Origin: an uncultured Bacilli bacterium
Lineage (GTDB): Bacteria > Bacillota_I > Bacilli_A > RF39 > UBA660
Direction of reading: 5' to 3'
DNA length: 64,000 bases
Assembly (NCBI GenBank): GCA_947629445.1
Contig: CANRDU010000001.1
Span: 1,386 to 65,385, forward strand
Shown here: positions 15,467 through 51,830 of the stretch, one piece after another
Position numbering within the stretch: position 1 is the first letter of the stretch
Layout of the letters: every line of letters starts with the position of its first letter
Notes under the pieces: model-generated
The model's input: the letters and a program-made list of their open reading frames with translations, nothing else
What the model was told of the DNA's origin: nothing
The model's database searches: none
Translations under genes and position numbers: made by a program

Positions 15467-15801
15467 ATCTATTCCTCCTTTTTATAAATTAAAAAACGAC
15501 TCCGCGGATGCAAAGTCATTGAAAAAAACAAATATAATCATTATATTCATATTCTCTGACAAGCACTCCACAAGTTTCAACCTTGTGACAGTTTAATACA
15601 TATTCTGTATTAACCCAGTATAGAAAAATATCAGATTATCTTTCTAAACTTCGGCAATTTTTCCTTTCAATTCACTAGCTATAATCTGAGTAACTAATGT
15701 TTACTTATAAAAATTGCGCCTCTTTCAAAGTCAGTAGTATAATATCAAAATTAAAATATTCTGTCAATTCGGTTCCTATTAAGAATTCGTTAAATTCCTT
15801 T

Positions 15802-27213: not shown

Positions 27214-27237
27214 AAGAATAAAGATAGAAAGGAATGT

Positions 27238-27380
27238 TATTCTTAGCGCCAGAACCTACGGGTTGACGAGGTTAGTAGTGATCGAAATTTCGGCGGATGC
27301 TACTACGGGAAATCGTTAGTTCTATTTTAAAAAACAAAATCAAGATTGTAACAAAAAGTAGAACGTTAGAAAGGATGATT
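27238..27380 (+). promoter_or_regulatory. glmS ribozyme (GlcN6P-responsive self-cleaving riboswitch)
   Basis: Core AGCGCCAGAAC... and ...GTGATCGAAATTTCGGCGGATGC, which match the conserved glmS ribozyme P1/P2 core. It lies immediately 5' of glmS. Confidence 0.8.
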
Positions 27381-29207: not shown

Positions 29208-29596
29208 GGAATAATTAAAGAATATAGCACTTCCTCTTCTCTTCTACTAATCTCTTCCCCACCAAATCTTTTTAAGATGCGAATCATCGGAAGATTATGT
29301 GATGAAAAGGTTAATTCTAAGGATGGAATAGAAGAATTTTTTAACATTTCTATTAAATTTTTAAAAAGTCTAGTGCCATAGCCATTTCCCCTTTTTTCTT
29401 CTCTTATAAAAATATAAATATTGTTAGGTTTCATCGTATCCACTTTAGCATATCCCACTACTTCATTTTCCAAGCGAAAGAAATAAAATGGTTCTTCTAT
29501 AGGAACATTCATTTCTTTTTTCTCTTCTTCTGTCATCTTACAAAATGTTTCCATTATTTTTCTTTTCCTCCTTTTGACTAAAAAATTCTGGAACAA
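29204..29596 (-). CDS. GNAT family N-acetyltransferase
   Basis: ..IFIREEKRGNGYGTRLFKNLIE.. motif A. Confidence 0.7.
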   Translation of the reverse strand: MFQNFLVKRRKRKIMETFCKMTEEEKKEMNVPIEEPFYFFRLENEVVGYAKVDTMKPNNIYIFIREEKRGNGYGTRLFKNLIEMLKNSSIPSLELTFSSHNLPMIRILKRFGGEEISRREEEVLYSLIIP

Positions 29597-30422
29597 CGAC
29601 TTTTAGAAAGTCTTCCATTTTTTCATGATTAGGAGCTTCTTTTATTAATGCTTGCAGGAATTCAGGATTTTGTTTTAAAATACTTCCTACTAATAGAAAA
29701 AGTTCTTCATCCGTAAGTACCTTTACCGTATTATCCTGAAAAGTCAGTTTTGTCCTACCATTACTATCCTTACTAAGCCATTTCGTAACCCCTAACTTAC
29801 GTAGAATATAGTTCGCATATGTTTTTGGAAAATCAATAAATCTCACTTCCATTGGTATCCTATATTTTTCCCGTAATTTTTCTCTTTCTTCTTCTGTTTT
29901 CGTTTGCATCAAAGCAACTAAATAAGCAGTTCTTAAAACCGTATAGCGGTGTAATCCATTATCAGTGATAATATACTTTCCTCGAGATGCGTAAGCACCT
30001 TTCATCGGTTCTCTTTGAAAACTACTTTGTAAATGAGAAAGCAAAGTATCTATAGGATACAGAAGCAAAGATAAAGACCGGCTATGATAACCATCTGCAT
30101 ACTCGCTATCATCAAAGAAATTGGAATAAGAATCCAAAAGACTACTAGTCTTAGCAGGCATCCAACTATAATCATATCCTACAATATCGGCTATACTAAC
30201 CATTTCTAATGCACGGGAAGAAGTAATTTTATAATAATCTAATATCCAGTCAATATCTATTTGACTTTGAAGATTGGTATCCACTTTAGATTCTAATTCT
30301 TCTCTTGTTACCCCATTTCTTTTTAAATATCGATCTACTAATGTCATAGCATCACCAATTTTATTATAACATGAAAAACAACATTCAAAATAAAGATTGC
30401 AAAAAAAAAGATGAAAAATCAT
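29538..30422 (-). CDS. Hypothetical protein. The true start is probably the internal MTLVDRY.
   Basis: ORF only. Its 3' end overlaps the GNAT gene. Confidence 0.45.
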   Translation of the reverse strand: MIFHLFFCNLYFECCFSCYNKIGDAMTLVDRYLKRNGVTREELESKVDTNLQSQIDIDWILDYYKITSSRALEMVSIADIVGYDYSWMPAKTSSLLDSYSNFFDDSEYADGYHSRSLSLLLYPIDTLLSHLQSSFQREPMKGAYASRGKYIITDNGLHRYTVLRTAYLVALMQTKTEEEREKLREKYRIPMEVRFIDFPKTYANYILRKLGVTKWLSKDSNGRTKLTFQDNTVKVLTDEELFLLVGSILKQNPEFLQALIKEAPNHEKMEDFLKVVVPEFFSQKEEKKNNGNIL

Positions 30423-30452: not shown

Positions 30453-32198
30453 TTATTCTCTTACCTTTATATGGATTTCTCTCAATTGTTGTTCCGATAC
30501 TTCACTAGGACAACCCATCATCATATCTTGGCCACTTACACTCATTGGGAAAGCTTGAACCTCCCTTAAATTTGGTTCATCTAGAAGAAGCATGAGCATC
30601 CGATCAATACCTGGAGCCATTCCAGCATGTGGAGGAACACCATATTGAAAGGCATGGTATAGAGATTGAAATTTTTCTTCTACTACATTATCTTCATATC
30701 CTACCATGGCGAAAGCCTTTTTTAAACACTCTATATCGTGGTTACGAACAGCTCCACTAGCCATTTCATATCCATTACATACAAAGTCATATTGGTATGC
30801 CAAAATATCTTCCATATTCGTATTTTCTAATCCTTTTATGCCATCATGTGGCATACTAAATGGGTTATGGCAAAAATCATACTTTTTATTTTCATGGTCA
30901 TATTCAAACATTGGAAAATCATTAACGATACAAAACTCGTAACGATTTGGATCAATTAGTCCTAATTTATTTCCTAAGAAGGTGCGAATTAATCCTGCCT
31001 CTTTAGCAGCAACATCTTCTCTTTTATCAGCAATAAAGAATAGAACACTTCCCTTTTTCAAGTTCGCTTTTGTTATTAAGTTTTCTCTATCTTGACTATT
31101 TAAAAACTTATCGATTGGTCCTTTAAAAGACATATCGTCTTCCACACTAATATAACCAATTCCTGGCATATCAATACTTTTCGCATAATCCACAATCTCA
31201 TTAAACCAACTATTCGGTTTATACGCAATATCCTCTACAGCAATTGCCCGAACGACAGAACCACGAAATGGTTTAAAATCACTCTCTTTAAAAACATCAC
31301 TCAGATCGATAATTTCTAAAGGATTTCGTAAATCAGGTTTATCGGTTCCATATTTTAACATGGCCTCTTTAAAGGAAAGTCTACGAAATGGTCTTGGACT
31401 AACCCATCTATCACTAAAATGAGTAAAGGTGTCATAGAAGATTTCTTCTCCTATTTCATAGATATCTTCCTCATCCACAAAGGCCATTTCAAAATCTAGT
31501 TGATAAAATTCTAACGTTCTATCACTTCTACAGTCTTCATCACGAAAACAAGGCGCAATTTGATAGTATTTATCAAAATTACTTACCATTAATAATTCTT
31601 TAAATACCTGCGGTGCCTGCGGTAAAGCATAAAATTTTCCTTTAAATTTACGAGAGGGAATTAAAAAGTCCCTCGCACCTTCTGGACTAGATGCCGTTAT
31701 GATAGGCGTTTCTACTTCGGTAAAGCCTAAACTATCCATCTTGTTTCTTAAATATTTTAACAATTCACTACGCAAACGAATATTTTTATGTACCTTTTCA
31801 TTTCGTAAATCTAAGTAACGATATTTTAATCGTACTTCTTCTGATACATTCGTAGAAGTCATAATCTCAAAAGGTAGTTCAGAAGGAGCTTTTCCTAAAA
31901 CATCTATTTTTTCTACCAATATCTCGACTGTTCCTGTTTTTAGTTTTGGGTTGTAGTCATCTTCCTCTCTTTTCCGTACAGTACCTAATATGGTTACAGA
32001 TGATTCTTTCGTAAGATGAAGAAACATCGTATCATCATTACTGACAACTTGTACTGTACCAAACTCATCTCGAATATCTACAAAAATAACGCCACCGTGG
32101 TCACGGATATTCGCAACCCAACCAGCAATTCTAACTTCTTTGCCAATAAGATTTTCTCCAATCTCACCACAATAAACCGTACGATATTTCTTATTCAT
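30453..32198 (-). CDS. aspS: Aspartyl-tRNA synthetase
   Basis: N-terminal OB fold (GWVANIRDHGGVIFVDIRDEFGTVQVV) and class II motif 2 (FRDEDCRSDRTLEFYQLDFE). Confidence 0.85.
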   Translation of the reverse strand: MNKKYRTVYCGEIGENLIGKEVRIAGWVANIRDHGGVIFVDIRDEFGTVQVVSNDDTMFLHLTKESSVTILGTVRKREEDDYNPKLKTGTVEILVEKIDVLGKAPSELPFEIMTSTNVSEEVRLKYRYLDLRNEKVHKNIRLRSELLKYLRNKMDSLGFTEVETPIITASSPEGARDFLIPSRKFKGKFYALPQAPQVFKELLMVSNFDKYYQIAPCFRDEDCRSDRTLEFYQLDFEMAFVDEEDIYEIGEEIFYDTFTHFSDRWVSPRPFRRLSFKEAMLKYGTDKPDLRNPLEIIDLSDVFKESDFKPFRGSVVRAIAVEDIAYKPNSWFNEIVDYAKSIDMPGIGYISVEDDMSFKGPIDKFLNSQDRENLITKANLKKGSVLFFIADKREDVAAKEAGLIRTFLGNKLGLIDPNRYEFCIVNDFPMFEYDHENKKYDFCHNPFSMPHDGIKGLENTNMEDILAYQYDFVCNGYEMASGAVRNHDIECLKKAFAMVGYEDNVVEEKFQSLYHAFQYGVPPHAGMAPGIDRMLMLLLDEPNLREVQAFPMSVSGQDMMMGCPSEVSEQQLREIHIKVRE

Positions 32199-32213
32199 CT
32201 TATCACTCCTTTT

Positions 32214-33593
32214 TTAAAATTCACAATTGTTTGGTGTTCTAGGATAAGGAATTACATCACGAATATTTTCAACTCCTGTTAAATAAATGAGTAATCTTTC
32301 AAATCCCATCCCAAATCCAGAGTGAACACAGCCGCCATATTTTCTTAAATTCAAATACCAATCTAGGCCTTCTTCTGACATTCCTAATTCACGCATACGA
32401 GTTAACAGTTTCTCATAAGATTCTTCTCTTTGGGAACCACCCATTAACTCTCCTGCTCCTGGTACTTCAAGGTCAACAGCAGCAACTGTCTTTCCGTCTG
32501 GGTTTTGTTTCATATAAAATGCTTTAATATCTTTGGGCCAATTCTTAATGAAGACAGGTCCGCCAAAATATTCAGTAATATATTTTTCATGTTCTTTGGC
32601 AATATCTTCTCCATAAGAGGGTTCAAATTCCCATTTCACATCTGCTTTTTTCAAAATCGAAATTACTTCTTCATGGTCTACTCGTGTAAAATGACTATGA
32701 ACCAGTTTATTTAATTTTTCCTTTAATCCTTTTTCAACGAACTCATCGAAAAAATTCATCTCTTCAGGGCAGTGTTCTAACACATAAGATACGATATACT
32801 TAAGCATGTCTTCCATGATATCCATATCCCCTTCTAAATCACAGAAAGCAATCTCAGGCTCAATCATCCAAAACTCGGAAGCATGTGTTTTCGTATTAGA
32901 GTTCTCAGCCCGAAAGGTAGGACCAAAGGTATAAGTCTTTTTATAGGCAAGAGCGAATGTCTCTGCTTGTAACTGTCCAGATACTGTAAGTGCTGTTTTC
33001 TTTCCAAAGAAGTCTCTATCGTATTCTACTTTTCCTAAAGAAGCAACTTTATCAAGATCAAGAGTTGTTACTTGAAACATTTCGCCTGCTCCCTCACAGT
33101 CACTAGCAGTAATAAGAGGAGCATGAAAATATACATATCCTCTTTCTTGAAAGTAGGTATGAATCGCATGAGCAGCTACACTTCTTACGCGAAAAACTGC
33201 TTGAAATAAGTTGGTTCTCGGTCTTAAATAAGCAAGTTCCCGTAAAAATTCTCTCGTATGTCTTTTCGGCTGAATAGGATAATCTTCTGGTGCATCTCCT
33301 TCTAACACCAAACTTTCAAGTTGTAACTCAACACTCTGCCCTTCTTTTGGTGAAGGGATTAACACTCCGGTTGCACTAATCGCACTACCAATATGCAATT
33401 TCGCAATCTCTTCAAAATTATCTAACGTATTATCATAGACAATTTGTAGGTGTTTAAAACTTGTTCCATCACTAAAATCAATAAAACCAAATTCTTTTTG
33501 TTTTCGATGATTACGAATCCATCCTTGAACAGTTACTTCTTTATTTTCATATTTCTTTTCGTCCTCGAAAATTTCTCTTAAATCAATTCCCAT
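32214..33593 (-). CDS. asnS: Asparaginyl-tRNA synthetase
   Basis: Class IIb motifs FRAENSNTKTHASEFWMIEPE and GG..HSGFGMGFERL. The length is typical for AsnRS. Confidence 0.85.
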   Translation of the reverse strand: MGIDLREIFEDEKKYENKEVTVQGWIRNHRKQKEFGFIDFSDGTSFKHLQIVYDNTLDNFEEIAKLHIGSAISATGVLIPSPKEGQSVELQLESLVLEGDAPEDYPIQPKRHTREFLRELAYLRPRTNLFQAVFRVRSVAAHAIHTYFQERGYVYFHAPLITASDCEGAGEMFQVTTLDLDKVASLGKVEYDRDFFGKKTALTVSGQLQAETFALAYKKTYTFGPTFRAENSNTKTHASEFWMIEPEIAFCDLEGDMDIMEDMLKYIVSYVLEHCPEEMNFFDEFVEKGLKEKLNKLVHSHFTRVDHEEVISILKKADVKWEFEPSYGEDIAKEHEKYITEYFGGPVFIKNWPKDIKAFYMKQNPDGKTVAAVDLEVPGAGELMGGSQREESYEKLLTRMRELGMSEEGLDWYLNLRKYGGCVHSGFGMGFERLLIYLTGVENIRDVIPYPRTPNNCEF

Positions 33594-33596
33594 AAT

Positions 33597-35054
33597 TTAC
33601 CTCTTATCAATTTCCTCGTGGATAATTTGGGCAGTTAAACTTGGGTTAGCCTGTCCACGGGTTGCTTTCATAACTTGACCTACAAAGAAATCAAATGTAT
33701 TTTTTCCTTTTCTATGATCTTCTATCAAATCCGGATGTTCATCTAAAACTTTTACGACAATATCCCGAATCGTTTTATCATCAGAAATTTGTGTAACTCC
33801 TAATTTTTTCACAATTTCTTTTGGTGCTTTCTTTTCCTCTAATACTTTGTTTAAAACTTCTTTACTCTGTTTAGAAGAAATTTTACCAGATTTTACCATA
33901 TCCATTAAATCCACTAACATGGTAGGTGTAAGATAAAGATCTTTTATCTCTAATTCTTCCTTATTTAAATATCCTAAAATAACACTGGTAATCCAGTTAG
34001 CAGCTCCTTTTGGATCCGCTCCCAAACTAATGGTCTCTTCATAATAATCGGATACTGCTTTTTCTTTTACGAGTACCTGAGCATCATAAGAAGATAAGTG
34101 ATATACCTTTTCGTACTTTTCTTTTCTTTCAGGGGCGAGTTCTGGAATAGATGCTCGAATAGATTCTAACCAATCGGGAGACAATTTAAACTTTGGAATA
34201 TTGGGTTCAACAAAATATTTATAGTCAATCGCATCTACTTTGCTTCTCATGTAAATAGTAGAAAAAGTATCCTCATCCCAACGACGAGTTTGCTGTTCCA
34301 TTTCATCGTAAGTACCATCTTCTTTAAGGGCTATTTGTCTTTCAATTTCATAATTAATCGCATCTCTAACGCCCCCAAAAGAGTTTACGTTTTTAATTTC
34401 TACTTTAGTACCCCAATTTTTAGGATTACTGGCATCTTTTCCTTTATCCATGATAGATACATTGACATCACACCTGATTTGTCCTTTTCTACTATCTGCC
34501 TCACTAATACCGGCATACTGATAAATAGAGCGCATCGTTTCTAGAAAAGCAACGGCTTCCTCTGCTGAATGGAGGTCTGGCTCAGTTACTAATTCAAGAA
34601 GCGGTACACCAGCACGGTTATAATCGATCGTTGAAAAAGTTGGATAGTGGTCAGTCGAAGCGGCATCTTCCTCTAAGTGGATATTGTTGATACGTACTCT
34701 TTTTGATTCCCCTTTACATTCAAAATCTAAATATCCATAACTTCCAACCGGAGCTGGTTTGGTTTCTTGCGTAATTTGAAATCCTTTTGGTAAATCTGGA
34801 TAATAATAATTTTTTCTTTCAAAATACATGTATTCTGGTTGTGTACAATGAAGAATCATACTAGCTTTCAGAGCCAATTTCACAGCTTCTTTATTTACAA
34901 CCGGAAGAGTTCCTGGAAAAGCCATATCAACAGGACGAATATGAGAGTTCGGTTCTTCACTATAACCGTTTTTTGCACTAGAGAATACTTTCGTTTTCGT
35001 CTCACTAATTTCACAGTGCATCTCTAATCCAATTAATACTTGATAATCTTCCAT
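33597..35054 (-). CDS. gatB: Asp-tRNA(Asn)/Glu-tRNA(Gln) amidotransferase subunit B
   Basis: N-terminus LIGLEMHCEI..FPGTLPVVN. GatB family. Confidence 0.9.
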   Translation of the reverse strand: MEDYQVLIGLEMHCEISETKTKVFSSAKNGYSEEPNSHIRPVDMAFPGTLPVVNKEAVKLALKASMILHCTQPEYMYFERKNYYYPDLPKGFQITQETKPAPVGSYGYLDFECKGESKRVRINNIHLEEDAASTDHYPTFSTIDYNRAGVPLLELVTEPDLHSAEEAVAFLETMRSIYQYAGISEADSRKGQIRCDVNVSIMDKGKDASNPKNWGTKVEIKNVNSFGGVRDAINYEIERQIALKEDGTYDEMEQQTRRWDEDTFSTIYMRSKVDAIDYKYFVEPNIPKFKLSPDWLESIRASIPELAPERKEKYEKVYHLSSYDAQVLVKEKAVSDYYEETISLGADPKGAANWITSVILGYLNKEELEIKDLYLTPTMLVDLMDMVKSGKISSKQSKEVLNKVLEEKKAPKEIVKKLGVTQISDDKTIRDIVVKVLDEHPDLIEDHRKGKNTFDFFVGQVMKATRGQANPSLTAQIIHEEIDKR

Positions 35055-36511
35055 TAGTGTTCCTCCTTTACTATTTGATTTTTATAAGGCATCGTACTTT
35101 CTAGAGCATAAGCAATATTTAAAACATTGATATCATCATAACAATTTCCCGTAATATTAATGCCGACTGGAAGACCACTTACAAAACCATCTGGAATGGT
35201 AATAGATGGAAATCCTCCAAAATTGCCAACTTGTAAATGTTCCTCTAATACTTGCGTATTGTGATCTAGCATATCCTTATCCTCATCAAACTTTTTAGCA
35301 GGACCACTACCAACTGGTAAAATGACGGCATCATAATTTTTAAAGATTTCTTTCCAACGGTCCACTAAAAGTCTTCTTACCCTTTGGGCATTATGAAAGT
35401 ATCTATCTTTATTTTGAGCCTGTAAAACATAAGAACCAATCACAAATCTTCTTTTGATTAAAGGAGAAAATCCTGTTGTACGATAATTTTTCATCATATC
35501 GATATAGTTATCCGCATCACTTCTTGGTCCAAAGATAATTCCTGTTAGGTTAGACATATTGGAAGTAGCTTCCGCACAAGAGATAACTACATAAACAGAT
35601 GCTAAAGCATTGAGAAGCGTTTGATCGACAGATACTTCTTCTACCTCAACACCTAAATCTTGAAAGTGTTTAAGAGTATTATGGAAGTTTTCTAAATGTT
35701 CCTTTAATTCAGAAGACGCATTTGGATACATAGAAATATCAGCAATCTCTTTAATCGTACATACTTTTTTACCTTTAATATCTTTTGTTAGGGAATCATA
35801 TAAATGCATATTACTAGAATCCCAACTCGTCATATCGTTTTTATCGATTCCTTTCATGCCATCTACAACAATTGCGGCATCCTCAACACTACGAGCAAGT
35901 ACGCCACAATGGTCCAAACTAGAAGCAAATGGGAATAGTCCATAACGAGAAATCATACCATAGGTTGGTTTATATCCAACAATACCACAATAAGCAGCTG
36001 GTTTACGAATAGAATCTCCGGTATCAGATCCTGTTGCATACGGATATACGCCAGCCGCAACAGCCGCAGCCGAACCAGCACTAGAACCTGCACACATACG
36101 CGTTTGATCCCAAGGATTTTTAACAATTCCGGTATGCCCTGTCGTACCGGTTCCTCCCATACCAAATTCGTCCATAACCGTCTTATTAACAGCAACTGCC
36201 CCATGACTCTCTAAATTAGAAATAGCCGTAGCTGTAAAGAATGGAACATAATCTTTTAAGGTATTACTAGATCCCGTACTTAAAATACCTTTGGTACTAT
36301 AGTTATCTTTAATACCGTAAGGAATACCAGATAATATATCTTCGGTAACAGGAGTTTCCTTAGCATCCTCTAAAATGGTTACAAAAGCATTACACTTTTC
36401 TTGTACTTCTTTTGATTTTTTTAAAGATTCGGAAATTAATTCTTGAGAAGTTACTTTCCCACTTTTTAAAGCTTCATGGATTTCTACCAATCCTTTATCC
36501 ATATATGTCAT
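35054..36511 (-). CDS. gatA: Amidotransferase subunit A (amidase signature family)
   Basis: Amidase signature GGSSGGSAAAVAAG. Confidence 0.9.
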   Translation of the reverse strand: MTYMDKGLVEIHEALKSGKVTSQELISESLKKSKEVQEKCNAFVTILEDAKETPVTEDILSGIPYGIKDNYSTKGILSTGSSNTLKDYVPFFTATAISNLESHGAVAVNKTVMDEFGMGGTGTTGHTGIVKNPWDQTRMCAGSSAGSAAAVAAGVYPYATGSDTGDSIRKPAAYCGIVGYKPTYGMISRYGLFPFASSLDHCGVLARSVEDAAIVVDGMKGIDKNDMTSWDSSNMHLYDSLTKDIKGKKVCTIKEIADISMYPNASSELKEHLENFHNTLKHFQDLGVEVEEVSVDQTLLNALASVYVVISCAEATSNMSNLTGIIFGPRSDADNYIDMMKNYRTTGFSPLIKRRFVIGSYVLQAQNKDRYFHNAQRVRRLLVDRWKEIFKNYDAVILPVGSGPAKKFDEDKDMLDHNTQVLEEHLQVGNFGGFPSITIPDGFVSGLPVGINITGNCYDDINVLNIAYALESTMPYKNQIVKEEH

Positions 36512-36813
36512 TATCCCACCACCTTCGGTACTTTAATCTCATCACCAGCATAATCATCACAGTTCGCAAGAGCATCATCAATAGAAATAGACTCTTCCTC
36601 TTCATCTTCTCTTAACTCATAGGTAAAATCATCTAGACAATGCGTCATTGGAGGAACATCTGCAATATTTGGTATTTCATTAATGATATCAATTTGCGCA
36701 TCAATAACATCAAATTCATCCAATACCATTTGATTCTCTTCTCTCGTTAGTCCAATCAGTAATTTGTCGGCATAATCATCTACCATTTCACTTGTAAATT
36801 TTCTCTCTTCCAT
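36511..36813 (-). CDS. gatC: Amidotransferase subunit C
   Basis: 100 aa, GatC-like. Coupled to gatA. RBS AAGGAGGA. Confidence 0.8.
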   Translation of the reverse strand: MEERKFTSEMVDDYADKLLIGLTREENQMVLDEFDVIDAQIDIINEIPNIADVPPMTHCLDDFTYELREDEEEESISIDDALANCDDYAGDEIKVPKVVG

Positions 36814-36828
36814 AAATCCTCCTTATAA

Positions 36829-36857
36829 CAAAAAATAAGTCCTGAAACATAGGACTT
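36829..36857 (-). terminator. Hairpin plus T-tract between tRNA-Asn and gatC (intrinsic terminator, attenuator or processing signal)
   Basis: Minus strand: AAGTCCT-atgtttc-AGGACTT ATTTTTTG. Confidence 0.5.
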
Positions 36858-36870
36858 ATTATATATCTAA

Positions 36871-36946
36871 TGGCGCCTGATGTAGGACTCGGACCTACGA
36901 CCTGCCGGTTAACAGCCGGATGCTCTACCAACTGAGCTAATCAGGC
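36871..36946 (-). tRNA. tRNA-Asn (GTT), copy 1
   Basis: GCCTGATTAGCTCAGTTGGTAGAGC..GGCTGTTAACCGG..GGTCCGAGTCC..ATCAGGCGCCA. Confidence 0.9.
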
Positions 36947-36949
36947 AAA

Positions 36950-37025
36950 TGGCGCTCAATGTAGGACTCGGACCTACGACCTGCCGGTTAACAGCCGGAT
37001 GCTCTACCAACTGAGCTAATTGAGC
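36950..37025 (-). tRNA. tRNA-Asn (GTT), copy 2
   Basis: Near-identical tandem copy (GCTCAATTAGCTCAG...ATTGAGCGCCA). Confidence 0.9.
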
Positions 37026-37027
37026 AA

Positions 37028-37284
37028 TTCATAATATCGTCCTATTATGGGACGAATCATATCCGCGGTACCACCCAAATTGTCATTTTACATGACCTCT
37101 CACTCGATTTCAAAAAAAATCGTGTAACGTGGTAACGGGTTACTTCCGATTAAATCTACTAGATACCGTTCGATTTAACAACTAGTGGGTGTTATTCCGA
37201 TAGAGCGTTGTCGTTAGCTCTCACCATACCTAACTCGCTTACACTCGTTTTCTAACGTACTTCTCCCACGTCAAAACGCTTATG
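37028..37284 (-). promoter_or_regulatory. T-box riboswitch leader with an Asn (AAC) specifier
   Basis: The minus strand reads AATTTGGGTGGTACCGCGG, matching the T-box consensus AATTAGGGTGGNACCGCG. A terminator hairpin CGTCC-cataatag-GGACG with a U-rich tail follows. A candidate specifier loop GGAAUAACAC lies 3' of a distal stem (GAGAGC..GCTCTA). Confidence 0.7.
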
Positions 37285-37291
37285 AATTCAT

Positions 37292-37318
37292 TATAGTCTA
37301 AAGACGATAGTTTGTCAA
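37292..37318 (-). promoter_or_regulatory. Consensus sigma-A promoter (TTGACA-17-TATAAT) driving the T-box leader
   Basis: Minus strand: TATTGACAAACTATCGTCTTTAGACTATAATGAA. The hexamers are perfect and the spacer is 17 nt. Confidence 0.65.
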
Positions 37319-37328
37319 TAACCCTTCT

Positions 37329-37353
37329 TAAAAAAAGTTAGGTTTCCCTAACT
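37329..37353 (-). terminator. Rho-independent terminator of the TPR gene
   Basis: Minus strand: AGTTAGG-gaaa-CCTAACT TTTTTTT. It overlaps the stop codon. Confidence 0.6.
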
Positions 37354-39654
37354 TCTCTCTTCTTTCCTTTCTAATTTATCTTTGTTTTTTTGCTGCTCTA
37401 AGATAACCTTAATCTCTTCAATACGAGGTCTTAAATGATAGCCAAGATTTTGCTCTTGATTCATTTCTTCTGCTATTTTTAAATATTTAAGTGAACGTGA
37501 TAACTTTCCTAATTTTTCATAGCAAGTTGCCAAGTTCAAATAAACATCGATTCTCTCTTTCGGATAAAATTCATTATAGGTAAAATAGCAGAAACTAGCA
37601 TCATTCCATCTCTTTTGTTTGTAATAACATTCTCCTTGAAAATAGTAAGCATCTGGATTGGGAGATATGGCGTTAGCCTTTAAAAAACTAGCTAGAGCTT
37701 CTTGATATTTTCCCATTTGAATATAAATATAACCTTCTAGTACATATCCTTTATAATTCCTAGTGGTATCTAGTTGGTAATAATAATCTAGGTAGGCTAA
37801 AGCATTATCAAAATGGTAATTTCTCATTTCACTATAGGCGAAAGCATACATTTCTTCTTTTTGCCTTACGATAGTAGGATTCTCTAAAGTATCCATATAA
37901 GTTACTTCAATGGCGTAATAAAATTGATCTAACCTTTTATGAATTCCATTTGCCCGTAATAACTGCTCATATTGATTTAGATAATATCTAGCATCATCTA
38001 ACTGAAGATTATAATAACAAGTTAAAAATTTTTGAAATTCTGGATTATTGGGCATGTAATGGAACAAAAATGGTTCTACCGGATAAAATACCTTCTTTTC
38101 TTCCTCTTCTTCTTCATTTTTTGGTGGCAAAACTGCTTCTTTCGTTGGAACTTCCTTTTGCCCTTTTTGCGTATGAGAAAGTTGCTCTAACTTAGAAGTA
38201 ATTTCTTCTTCGATAATTTTATCTTGATTTTGAACTTCTAACGGGATCTCAGGAAGTTCTTCCATACTAATATCATAAGAACCTTCTTTTTCTTCCGTTG
38301 GCATCTCTATTTTATTTTCAATCGCAATTCCTGCTTGAAATAAATCCAATAACAATTCCTCTTGATAAATTTTTAATCCTACCTTATGGATTTGATATAA
38401 CTCTAAAGCATGGAGATAATGACCTCTCATAATATTGCTTTGAACAATTTGATAAATATTATCTAACTCTTTTTGATGTTCTTCTAAAATACCGAAAAAA
38501 TATTCTAGTAAAGATAAATAAGTACTGATTTTAATTTTAGAATTCTTAGAATCTAAATTTTTACCTCGGCATCGCTTTCCCACTTCATAAGCTTTCTTAA
38601 AATCCCCTACCGATATGGCTTCAAAGAAAGTATACAGTTTATCCTGTTCTTTTCGATAGGTATACTTCACTTCTAACAATTCGAAGGTACTATCAGAGCG
38701 AGCCTTCTCTATCATTTCAATAAGTTCTAGGAAAAGATAATAAATATAGTTATCTTTATGGTCTATTTCCCGATGAGCTAGAATCATCTCTAACTCCTCT
38801 TTGGCTCCTGCAATATCATTCTCTGATACTTTTTTAACAAAACGTATAGAGCGCTCTTCTTCCAACTTTCGTTCTTGCAACCTTTTTTGCTCTTCCATTT
38901 CTTCTTTTTTCTGAATAATCAAATTTAAAATTTTAGAGGTTATCGCTAGAGCAATATCATCCTTTTTCATTTGCTCTAAACGATTCAAGGATTTACGTGC
39001 GGAAGAAAAGTCGTCTTCCCCTATTTCCTTAAGAAAAGTTAAATATCTGCCATTAAAAGAATTCGCATTAAAGGCAATGAGCGATTTAGCGGGGGTAAGT
39101 AATTCCATTAAAGGAATTGTGTCGTAATCTTCTCCCATCTTTTCATATAATAGTAAAAATAGACGATAACTATCATCGAAAGAATCTTCTTTTTTATTTT
39201 CAATCGCCTCTTGTAAGTAAGAAAAAGCATCTTTATCTTGAAATAAAGTCACGATAAACTTAGCGAAATATAATTCACTAGAATGTTTCCAATACTTTAA
39301 GATTTGATTCAAAATCCTATCCGCTTCTTCATAACGTTTCGAATCGATCTCTTGCCATGCTAATGCTAATAGTCCTAAAGAAGCATAACGATTATCATTA
39401 TACTGAAAACTATATAAAATCTCTTTAAAAAATAAGGGACTATTTACGAAAACCATTAGATTTTTGTTTGTTAATTTTTGTCTTTTCACAGCATGAATCG
39501 ATACCATGTCAAGACTTTTCCATTTGTTTCTTACGATACCAAGTCTCTTCATAACATACCCCCCGATATTTATGTTTTCTATTATAACAAAATTGACTGG
39601 TAAATAGCAAGAAAAAAGTATAAAATTTCTTTTATACTTCTTGAACAACAACAA
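37348..39654 (-). CDS. TPR-repeat protein (768 aa if the first ATG is used; the start may be internal)
   Basis: Multiple TPR-like helical repeats (e.g. AYYFQGECYYKQKRWNDASFCYF..YLNLATCYEKLGKLSRSLKYL). Its start overlaps the end of rnj. Confidence 0.6.
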   Translation of the reverse strand: MLLFKKYKRNFILFSCYLPVNFVIIENINIGGYVMKRLGIVRNKWKSLDMVSIHAVKRQKLTNKNLMVFVNSPLFFKEILYSFQYNDNRYASLGLLALAWQEIDSKRYEEADRILNQILKYWKHSSELYFAKFIVTLFQDKDAFSYLQEAIENKKEDSFDDSYRLFLLLYEKMGEDYDTIPLMELLTPAKSLIAFNANSFNGRYLTFLKEIGEDDFSSARKSLNRLEQMKKDDIALAITSKILNLIIQKKEEMEEQKRLQERKLEEERSIRFVKKVSENDIAGAKEELEMILAHREIDHKDNYIYYLFLELIEMIEKARSDSTFELLEVKYTYRKEQDKLYTFFEAISVGDFKKAYEVGKRCRGKNLDSKNSKIKISTYLSLLEYFFGILEEHQKELDNIYQIVQSNIMRGHYLHALELYQIHKVGLKIYQEELLLDLFQAGIAIENKIEMPTEEKEGSYDISMEELPEIPLEVQNQDKIIEEEITSKLEQLSHTQKGQKEVPTKEAVLPPKNEEEEEEKKVFYPVEPFLFHYMPNNPEFQKFLTCYYNLQLDDARYYLNQYEQLLRANGIHKRLDQFYYAIEVTYMDTLENPTIVRQKEEMYAFAYSEMRNYHFDNALAYLDYYYQLDTTRNYKGYVLEGYIYIQMGKYQEALASFLKANAISPNPDAYYFQGECYYKQKRWNDASFCYFTYNEFYPKERIDVYLNLATCYEKLGKLSRSLKYLKIAEEMNQEQNLGYHLRPRIEEIKVILEQQKNKDKLERKEERS

Positions 39655-51755: not shown

Positions 51756-51830
51756 TGGCTGCCCCAGTTAGATTCGAACTAACGCATCGTGGAGTCAGAG
51801 TCCACTGCCTTACCGCTTGGCCATGGGGCA
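51756..51830 (-). tRNA. tRNA-Gln (CTG)
   Basis: TGCCCCATGGCCAAGCGGTAAGGCAGTGGACTCTGACTCCAC..GTTCGAATCTAACTGGGGCAGCCA. Firmicute-type Gln tRNA starting with U1. Confidence 0.85.

Follow-up and report, generated by a model that had tools for sequence, protein, structure and literature searches.

What does a T-box riboswitch control when the first genes downstream of its leader encode the very tRNA that it senses? This question is raised by a locus on the minus strand of a 64,000-nucleotide (nt) stretch of DNA from an uncultured Bacilli bacterium (GenBank assembly GCA_947629445.1, contig CANRDU010000001.1, positions 1,386 to 65,385; hereafter the window), in which an Asn-type T-box leader is followed by two tandem tRNA-Asn(GUU) genes and then by gatCAB-asnS-aspS. 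A first-pass annotation of the window had noted this arrangement and had interpreted the tRNAs as the first genes under T-box control. The observation is confirmed by our analysis, and the interpretation is supported in part. The T-box identity of the leader and the conservation of the whole module are virtually certain. With respect to regulation, modelling and comparison of related loci make us lean slightly towards a reading in which the T-box expression platform is split around the genes of its ligand and the decision is relayed to a terminator located downstream of them.

T-box identity and conservation of the module

The near-consensus T-box element previously read in the leader was borne out by a search with Rfam family RF00230, which matched with 119.6 bits against a gathering score of 93 (E 6.9e-26) and covered the model from end to end (positions 1-219 of 219). 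The covariance-model alignment also places an AAC codon in the specifier loop, as had been proposed, followed by the purine A, and the adjacent tRNAs carry the GUU anticodon. The specifier context, GAA-N-AAC, is kept in the related leaders. Opposite the UGGU bulge, the G73-CCA end of the tRNAs leaves the variable base to form a U-G wobble; this predicted wobble is real, and the relatives have either UGGC or UGGU in the bulge and G73 in 132 of 132 tRNA-Asn genes. The downstream genes gatCAB, asnS, and aspS match the charging of the specified amino acid, and the same gene sets recur in the relatives. A helix competing with the antiterminator is also present; in the window it is not followed by the U-tract that comes after the terminator helix in T-boxes of the transcriptional class. 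Membership of the T-box family is thus secure, based on the covariance-model score, the specifier, the bulge, the competing helix, and the cognate downstream genes. Uncharged tRNA-Asn would be sensed as usual, through AAC with the GUU anticodon and UGGU with the G73-CCA end. The remaining elements listed by the first-pass annotation were also recovered (Table 1), including the terminator of the preceding TPR gene, the textbook sigma-A promoter, the two near-identical tRNA-Asn(GUU) genes, on which ARAGORN and Rfam agree, the second hairpin with its T-tract, and a ribosome-binding site (RBS) ahead of the operon, whose gene order is confirmed by NCBIfam.

The distribution of the module was analyzed by a pattern scan of one genome per species (185,579 species) for a T-box sequence, a gap of 30-60 nt, and a tRNA D-arm. 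The scan gave at least 119 matches, which were sorted by ARAGORN, tblastn, and Rfam. Among the 119 matches listed, about 76 loci have an Asn-type T-box followed by one to four tRNA-Asn(GUU) genes, seven have a T-box followed by tRNA-Phe, and four, all from Ruminococcus, have a T-box followed by a tRNA-like gene. Two further groups among those listed were rejected: in 15 matches from Sphingobacterium/Alloprevotella, the tRNA genes are tandem copies for Phe and the motif corresponds to a tRNA 3' end, and 17 matches from Actinobacteria, Acidobacteria, Saccharibacteria, and others arose by chance and have no Rfam T-box. A scan of metagenome contigs identified 20 further contigs of the Asn type. 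The hosts of the Asn-type loci are uncultured gut and rumen metagenome-assembled genomes (MAGs) labelled Bacilli, Tenericutes, Mollicutes, or Erysipelotrichaceae. Wherever the contig continues beyond the tRNAs, the gene set is gatCAB-asnS-aspS, gatCAB-asnS, gatCAB-aspS, or asnS alone. Representative related leaders score 109-147 bits with the Rfam T-box model at the same position, and the consensus promoter (TATTGACAAA...TATAAT) is kept at equal distance ahead of them. Comparative genomics thus shows the layout to be strongly conserved, and the retention of the promoter, the GAA-N-AAC specifier, and the bulge across the Asn-type family, together with G73, argues that the arrangement is functional and selected. 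The nearest relatives among the matches listed are L045 and L073, both MAGs of uncultured Bacilli from rabbit gut, with 85-88% protein identity; L045 also has RNase J and TPR genes upstream. AsnS of the window has an exact copy only on two short ENA metagenome contigs. Two separate T-box-tRNA-Asn modules were observed within one MAG on two occasions (L041 and L064 in JAZRAM01; L003 and L075 in CANQNL01), hence some genomes carry more than one copy. The two tandem tRNA-Asn isodecoders of the window, with acceptor strands GCUCAAU and then GCCUGAU, occur as the same pair and in the same order in most related loci, whatever genes follow.

The same comparison bears on the possibility that the tRNA genes have a promoter of their own in or just after the leader, and that the T-box is a separate element, either constitutively terminated or vestigial. 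Two candidates for such a promoter can be found in the window, TTGAAA-17-TAAAAT inside the leader (37113..37085) and TATTAT (37036..37031), the latter 5 nt upstream of the first tRNA gene. Both were rejected, as promoter-like matches occur in the region at the frequency of shuffled sequences (5 vs. 5.8 expected) and neither candidate is kept in the relatives. In the window and its relatives, no conserved promoter was found in the stretch from the leader to the tRNAs or in that from the tRNAs to gatC. A vestigial T-box is further opposed by the range of Rfam scores given above and by a specifier and bulge that are conserved, and matched to the adjacent tRNA, in dozens of species. Independent transcription of the tRNA genes is thus considered extremely improbable.

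Helix 1 and a proposed alternative partner across the tRNA genes

The hairpin located between the T-box sequence and the first tRNA gene (helix 1) had been described as a terminator with a U-rich tail. The hairpin is present and ends 5 nt before the tRNA, but the presumed tail, UAUUAU, is part of the stem, and there is no U-tract. The bases following helix 1 in the window are GAAUUGCU, including the moderately U-rich UAUUAUGAAUU, and helix 1 was not called in a terminator scan of the window. U-tracts are present at the terminator of the TPR gene and at the hairpin behind the tRNAs (terminator 2). Terminators with U-tracts are the norm in this genome, which makes the missing tract after helix 1 meaningful.

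The region separating the T-box sequence from the first tRNA gene was folded in 62 analysable loci, which fall into 49 of class A, including the window, and 13 of class B/C. The helix competing with the antiterminator has a median free energy of -8.9 kcal/mol in class A versus -14.9 kcal/mol in class B/C. In the 8 nt following this helix, class A loci have a median of 4 U (range 1-5) and class B/C loci have 6-7, and an uninterrupted run of at least four U is found in one of the 49 class A loci versus all 13 of class B/C. Tails observed in class A include AAAGUGAA and AAAAUAAA, which are incapable of termination. Behind the tRNAs, class A has a strong hairpin whose U-run (median 6) stops within a few bases of the RBS, and class B/C has no consistent feature. 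Class B/C thus has a canonical T-box terminator placed ahead of the tRNAs.

These observations have to be held against an explanation close to the original interpretation, where helix 1 is the regulated T-box terminator, uncharged tRNA-Asn induces both the tRNA genes and the operon in an autoregulatory loop on the ligand, and the post-tRNA hairpin is a constitutive, leaky terminator that makes tRNA output exceed mRNA output. Exactly such a design, with a U-tract before the tRNA, is found in the class B/C, Phe, and Ala loci, some of which also carry a post-tRNA hairpin without complementarity of the kind described below, and the moderately U-rich bases after helix 1 of the window are compatible with it. 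For class A, the explanation is opposed by the near absence of U-runs, by tails unable to terminate, and, in the window, by the terminator scan. It also leaves unexplained both a covariation that spans the tRNA genes and the restriction of this complementarity to loci without a U-tract. We therefore regard a regulated stop at helix 1 of the window as rather unlikely. The view of the tRNAs as the first T-box-regulated genes is accordingly not supported for the window, given the lack of a U-tract in 48 of the 49 class A loci and the covariation, whereas tRNA autoregulation as such fits the 13 class B/C loci and the Phe loci, where the U-tract precedes the tRNAs.

The covariation involves strands that also take part in other helices. 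Strand b is shared by the antiterminator, where it pairs with the 5' side (strand a), and by helix 1, where it pairs with strand c; it is almost invariant across two alignments (A1 and A2). Terminator 2 has strand d, AUAAUAAGUCCUAU, as its 5' arm and strand e (AGGACUUAUU and the following U6) as its 3' side. In the window, strand c is complementary to d and the preceding spacer, on the opposite side of the tRNA genes, over 7 base pairs (bp), a 2x1 internal loop, and 6 bp. The duplex has a free energy of -14.0 kcal/mol, corresponding to z = -3.3 relative to shuffled sequences.

Covariation was analyzed with each side anchored independently, the helix 1 arm via its pairing to the invariant T-box strand and the terminator arm via a conserved AAG, so that the pairing itself does not set the register. 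For 58 distinct sequences, 86.9% of the cells in the 7-bp c:d helix are paired, a level reached by none of 500 shuffles (75.2%). Cells changed on both sides number 63 versus 30.6 expected, and the covariation score is 0.468 versus 0.267 in the shuffles (again 0 of 500), while registers slid by one to three columns give 21-45% pairing. Three positions are informative, with pair counts of AU 31, GU 10, CG 7, and GC 5 at one, GC 39, AU 13, and GU 3 at another, and AU 48, GU 8, and GC 2 at the third. Strand c follows changes in d even at the cost of a pair with the invariant b, as in GAGAC:GUCUU, which loses a G-C pair with b. In one clade (CGGAC:GUCCG), the partner G is located in the loop of terminator 2 and is hence unconstrained by the terminator stem. 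These two cases speak for selection acting on the pairing itself.

Complementarity between the two flanks of the tRNA array is confined to loci without a U-tract. In class A, the median duplex is -13.1 kcal/mol with a median z of -2.9, and z is below -2 in 39 of 49 loci, compared to -6.4 kcal/mol, 0.15, and 0 of 13, respectively, in class B/C. Taken individually, none of the class B/C loci has a significant relay pairing (z between -1.7 and +0.4). Flanking stems are a common feature of stable RNAs, and since the array flanks are complementary in most class A loci, c:d and its flanks could instead be a processing stalk, resembling that of ribosomal RNA, that excises or stabilises the tRNA array; the T-box and terminator 2 would then act independently, with basal read-through into gatC. 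Class B/C arrays of the same tRNAs lack such flank complementarity, however, and tRNA maturation thus does not require it. The paired nucleotides are furthermore exactly the arms of helix 1 and terminator 2, which makes the three helices mutually exclusive, and the c:d helix consists of two short stretches, of 7 bp and 6 bp, with an interruption between them, hence a poor substrate for RNase III. A processing stalk is for these reasons judged quite improbable.

Since helix 1 has no U-tract and c covaries with d, the regulated stop is most likely terminator 2. In the split-platform reading that we favour slightly, a single transcription unit would start at the promoter upstream of the leader and contain the leader, the two tRNA-Asn genes, terminator 2, and gatCAB-asnS-aspS, with strands a, b, and c before the tRNAs and d and e after them forming a four-strand relay around the tRNAs. 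Without uncharged tRNA-Asn, helix 1 (b:c) would form and, having no U-tract, would let the polymerase transcribe the tRNAs; d would then be free to pair with e, and transcription would end at about 36830, 5 nt before the RBS of gatC. Uncharged tRNA-Asn would hold the antiterminator (a:b) and leave c free to capture the emerging d, aided by the flanking AU helix, with the consequence that e stays unpaired and the polymerase enters gatCAB-asnS-aspS. The tRNA-Asn genes would be transcribed in both states and excised by RNase P and 3' processing. The logic would be that of a normal T-box, with uncharged tRNA-Asn inducing the charging enzymes only. Most likely, then, the T-box promoter supplies the tRNAs constitutively and the T-box controls read-through into gatC.

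The switch was modelled with ViennaRNA, with the tRNAs left free, replaced by a stand-in hairpin, or enforced as cloverleaves; the last two were included because free tRNA sequences misfold in silico. With cloverleaf tRNAs, the probability of terminator 2 in the window falls from 0.93 when a is blocked to 0.28 when b is blocked, and the minimum-energy folds coincide exactly with the two states proposed. With the stand-in hairpin for the tRNA array, the mean probability over the 49 class A loci falls from 0.84 to 0.52.

Several observations weigh against the relay. With cloverleaf tRNAs, the mean terminator 2 probability over the 49 class A loci changes from 0.75 to 0.62 (Wilcoxon p = 4e-4), falling by more than 0.05 in 18 loci and rising in three, and with unconstrained tRNAs there is no switch (0.76 vs. 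0.77). Given this modest equilibrium effect, the relay depends on kinetic, co-transcriptional capture of d by c. The covariation comprises only about three to four independent compensatory events in related genomes, and the structure was derived from the same sequences. The spacer helix alone is weak: when only the 18 nt on each side of the array were considered, cognate pairs averaged -5.0 kcal/mol versus -3.2 kcal/mol for non-cognate pairs, with p = 0.07 by permutation among 15 dissimilar representatives, and the support hence comes from the arm-to-arm pairing and not from the spacers. With a moderately U-rich UAUUAUGAAUU after helix 1 of the window, a partial stop assisted by NusA/NusG might occur there. 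Finally, four loci (L031, L096, L032, and L110) combine a real T-box terminator with a strong post-tRNA hairpin and no significant relay complementarity. Read-through of a post-tRNA terminator is evidently achievable in another way, which weakens the relay as a universal rule.

Features of the window, related loci, and tRNA-Asn identity

The features of the locus are summarized in Table 1. The terminator of the TPR gene probably isolates the module from upstream transcription. The two tRNA copies are identical except for pairs 3-5 of the acceptor stem. The five protein-coding genes behind them are tightly packed (30453..36824, including the RBS), and GatC and GatA of the window score as divergent members of their families. 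A 294-amino-acid (aa) open reading frame (ORF; 29538..30422, minus strand), without an NCBIfam match, lies 30 nt downstream of aspS and is possibly the final gene of the operon. Elsewhere in the window, Rfam identified a lysine riboswitch (15553..15732, minus strand, 100.1 bits) and a glmS ribozyme (27234..27373, plus strand, 70.4 bits).

Table 1. Elements of the T-box-tRNA-Asn module and adjacent genes, in order of transcription (positions refer to the window)
Feature	Position	Strand	Evidence and description
TPR ORF upstream of the module	39654..37348	-	ORF list and NCBIfam search
Intrinsic terminator of the TPR gene	37353..37330	-	AGUUAGG-GAAA-CCUAACU and U7; sequence read
Sigma-A type promoter	37318..37290	-	TTGACA (37318..37313), 17 nt, TATAAT (37295..37290); 12/12 matches; predicted transcription start near 37283
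T-box leader	37283..37045	-	Rfam RF00230; Stem I with specifier loop, Stem II/IIA/B region, Stem III, antiterminator
Specifier region	37198..37187	-	GGAAUAACACCC; covariance-model alignment, GAA-U-AAC-A
Specifier codon AAC (Asn)	37193..37191	-	Covariance-model alignment
T-box sequence	37080..37063	-	AUUUGGGUGGUACCGCGG; UGGU bulge at 37073..37070
Helix 1 hairpin, 3' of the T-box sequence	37060..37031	-	AUGAUUCGUCC..GGACGA(U)AUUAU; 5 nt (GAAUU) before tRNA 1
Strand b	37056..37049	-	UUCGUCCC; antiterminator 3' strand and helix 1 5' arm
Strand c	37045..37031	-	AUAGGACGAUAUUAU; helix 1 3' arm and next bases, AUAGGAC-GA-UAUUAU; pairs with b or d
tRNA-Asn(GUU) copy 1	37025..36950	-	ARAGORN; Rfam 69.0 bits; acceptor GCUCAAU, G1-C72, G73, CCA encoded
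tRNA-Asn(GUU) copy 2	36946..36871	-	ARAGORN; Rfam 68.4 bits; acceptor GCCUGAU, G73, CCA encoded
Strand d and 5' spacer	36862..36849	-	AUAAUA-A-GUCCUAU; terminator 2 5' arm; proposed relay partner of c
Terminator 2	36860..36829	-	AAUAAGUCCU-AUGUUUC-AGGACUUAUU then UUUUUUG; hairpin 36860..36834, then U6; scan call with 10 pairs, 7-nt loop, T-tract; U-tract 5 nt from the gatC RBS
gatC RBS	36824..36818	-	AAGGAGG; sequence read; gatC ATG at 36813
gatC	36813..36511	-	NCBIfam best hit, 42 bits vs. cut-off 47.1 (just below)
gatA	36511..35054	-	NCBIfam best hit, 440.5 bits vs. cut-off 481.1 (just below)
gatB	35054..33597	-	NCBIfam, well above cut-off
asnS	33593..32214	-	NCBIfam, well above cut-off
aspS	32198..30453	-	NCBIfam, well above cut-off

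Among the related loci, the T-box of L025, L035, and L067 carries UUC (Phe) as its specifier; a canonical U-tract terminator comes next, followed by tRNA-Phe(GAA) and ORFs of 346 and 808 aa, which in L025 were confirmed as pheS and pheT by NCBIfam. Similar Phe loci are L021, L051, L058, and L100, with a T-box score of 105 bits in L058. The tRNA-before-synthetase layout is thus not limited to Asn. In four Ruminococcus MAGs (L042, L050, L095, and L119), a T-box whose specifier is GCU (Ala) and a terminator precede one or two tRNA-like genes (93-100 nt), which score 42-44 bits in the Rfam tRNA model and have a G3:U70 acceptor stem, an A-CCA end, and an anticodon-arm region enlarged by a long insertion. 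In L042, L050, and L119 the next ORF has an N-terminus like that of alanyl-tRNA synthetase; the one in L050 was confirmed as alaS. In the class B locus L063 (4086..4911), a promoter-like site is followed by tRNA-Ile, tRNA-Glu, a gap of ~24 nt, the T-box, four tRNA-Asn genes, and gatCAB, and no promoter-like site was found between tRNA-Glu and the leader of this locus. An Asn T-box inside a tRNA operon was also observed in L015, L032, and other class B loci.

The acceptor stems of the tRNA-Asn genes present a puzzle. U1-A72 was found in all 49 bacterial tRNA-Asn sequences examined by Bailly et al., and G1-C72 cuts transamidation by GatCAB ~100-fold (PMC1635274). G1-C72 is nevertheless present in all 132 tRNA-Asn genes behind T-boxes, directly before gatCAB and often with no asnS in the operon, while tRNA-Gln(CUG) of the window (51756..51830, minus strand) has U1-A72. 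The occurrence of G1-C72 beside gatCAB, set against the published U1-A72 rule, points to a different mode of tRNA recognition or a different role of GatCAB. In one subclade of the related loci, the identity of GatC to that of the window is down to 33-44%. The amidotransferase subunits that contact the acceptor end of the tRNA may be diverging.

Relation to known systems and significance

Saad et al., in 2012 and 2013, reportedly found that an Asn T-box ('NT-box') controls the aspS-gatCAB transamidation operon of Clostridium acetobutylicum. This NT-box is said to have a canonical adjacent terminator, two codons in the specifier region, and no intervening tRNA genes. As in the NT-box, so far as reported, a tRNA-Asn T-box with an AAC specifier is found with gatCAB and aspS under its control. 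Unlike it, the present loci have a single AAC, one to four embedded tRNA-Asn genes, often asnS as well, and, in the arrangement of the window, the U-tract terminator after the tRNAs.

The leader of the trp operon alternates between 1:2, 2:3, and 3:4 pairings, with ribosome stalling as the input. The proposed relay resembles this attenuator in that a chain of mutually exclusive hairpins would pass the decision to a terminator. It would differ in that the input is tRNA binding to a T-box, in having one more link (a:b, b:c, c:d, d:e), and in spanning two RNA genes. Mixed tRNA-mRNA operons are also known, as in thrU-tyrU-glyT-thrT-tufB of Escherichia coli, where the tRNAs are cut out by processing and no riboswitch is involved. 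Here too, tRNA genes and a downstream mRNA with a function in translation would share a promoter, but with the difference of a leader riboswitch whose ligand is the tRNAs of the same transcript.

A short extra hairpin of about 40 nt, stem Sa, is known from other T-boxes. It is inserted in the terminator/antiterminator domain of staphylococcal glyS T-boxes, where the switch still works (PMC4574755, PMC9177973). The embedded tRNA genes can likewise be regarded as a lineage-specific insertion in the expression platform. Unlike stem Sa, the insert consists of ~160-330 nt of tRNA genes, and an extra pair of strands (c:d) would be needed as a bridge. In the translational T-boxes of Actinobacteria, such as ileS of Mycobacterium tuberculosis, a competing helix sequesters the RBS (PMC11297988, PMC7778990). 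Like these, the window has an antiterminator-competing helix without a U-tract that would act by sequestering downstream sequence; here, by contrast, the sequestered sequence would be the anti-terminator strand for a remote intrinsic terminator.

T-boxes are presented as regulators of protein-coding genes, i.e., genes for synthetases, biosynthesis, and transporters (PMC7778990, PMC2494555), and tRNA genes as T-box targets are not mentioned in the TBDB paper or in the in silico survey from 2008 (PMC7778990, PMC2494555). No report of a T-box upstream of tRNA genes, in the Asn, Phe, or Ala layout, was found in the literature searched, the coverage of which was incomplete; within that coverage, the first-pass view of the layout as undescribed holds.

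A further suggestion, which we find improbable, is that the ligand genes placed between sensor and terminator are no passive insert but act as a timer and as a local source of ligand, and that the sister and Phe loci autoregulate directly. As a timer, the transcription of 160-330 nt would delay the decision, and a kinetically controlled T-box could re-equilibrate with the tRNA pool. As a local source, fresh and necessarily uncharged tRNA-Asn would be released beside its own leader, giving a partial feedback in cis on the ligand. As for direct autoregulation, the sister loci concerned are those whose U-tract precedes the tRNAs; there, as in the Phe loci, synthesis of the ligand would be under the control of the T-box that senses it.

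As far as the literature searched goes, the arrangement described here is a new one, in which a large group of uncultured gut Bacilli puts the genes of the ligand inside T-box units. Where a canonical T-box terminator precedes the tRNA genes of such a unit, the riboswitch would control the synthesis of its own effector. In the version found in the window, the tRNA genes lie inside the expression platform, and a covarying long-range pairing would transmit the decision past both folded tRNAs. Confirmation would make this a new transcriptional riboswitch architecture, with a terminator decision relayed over hundreds of nucleotides, and a natural system in which co-transcriptional folding, processing by RNase P, and the kinetics of a riboswitch could be studied on a single transcript.

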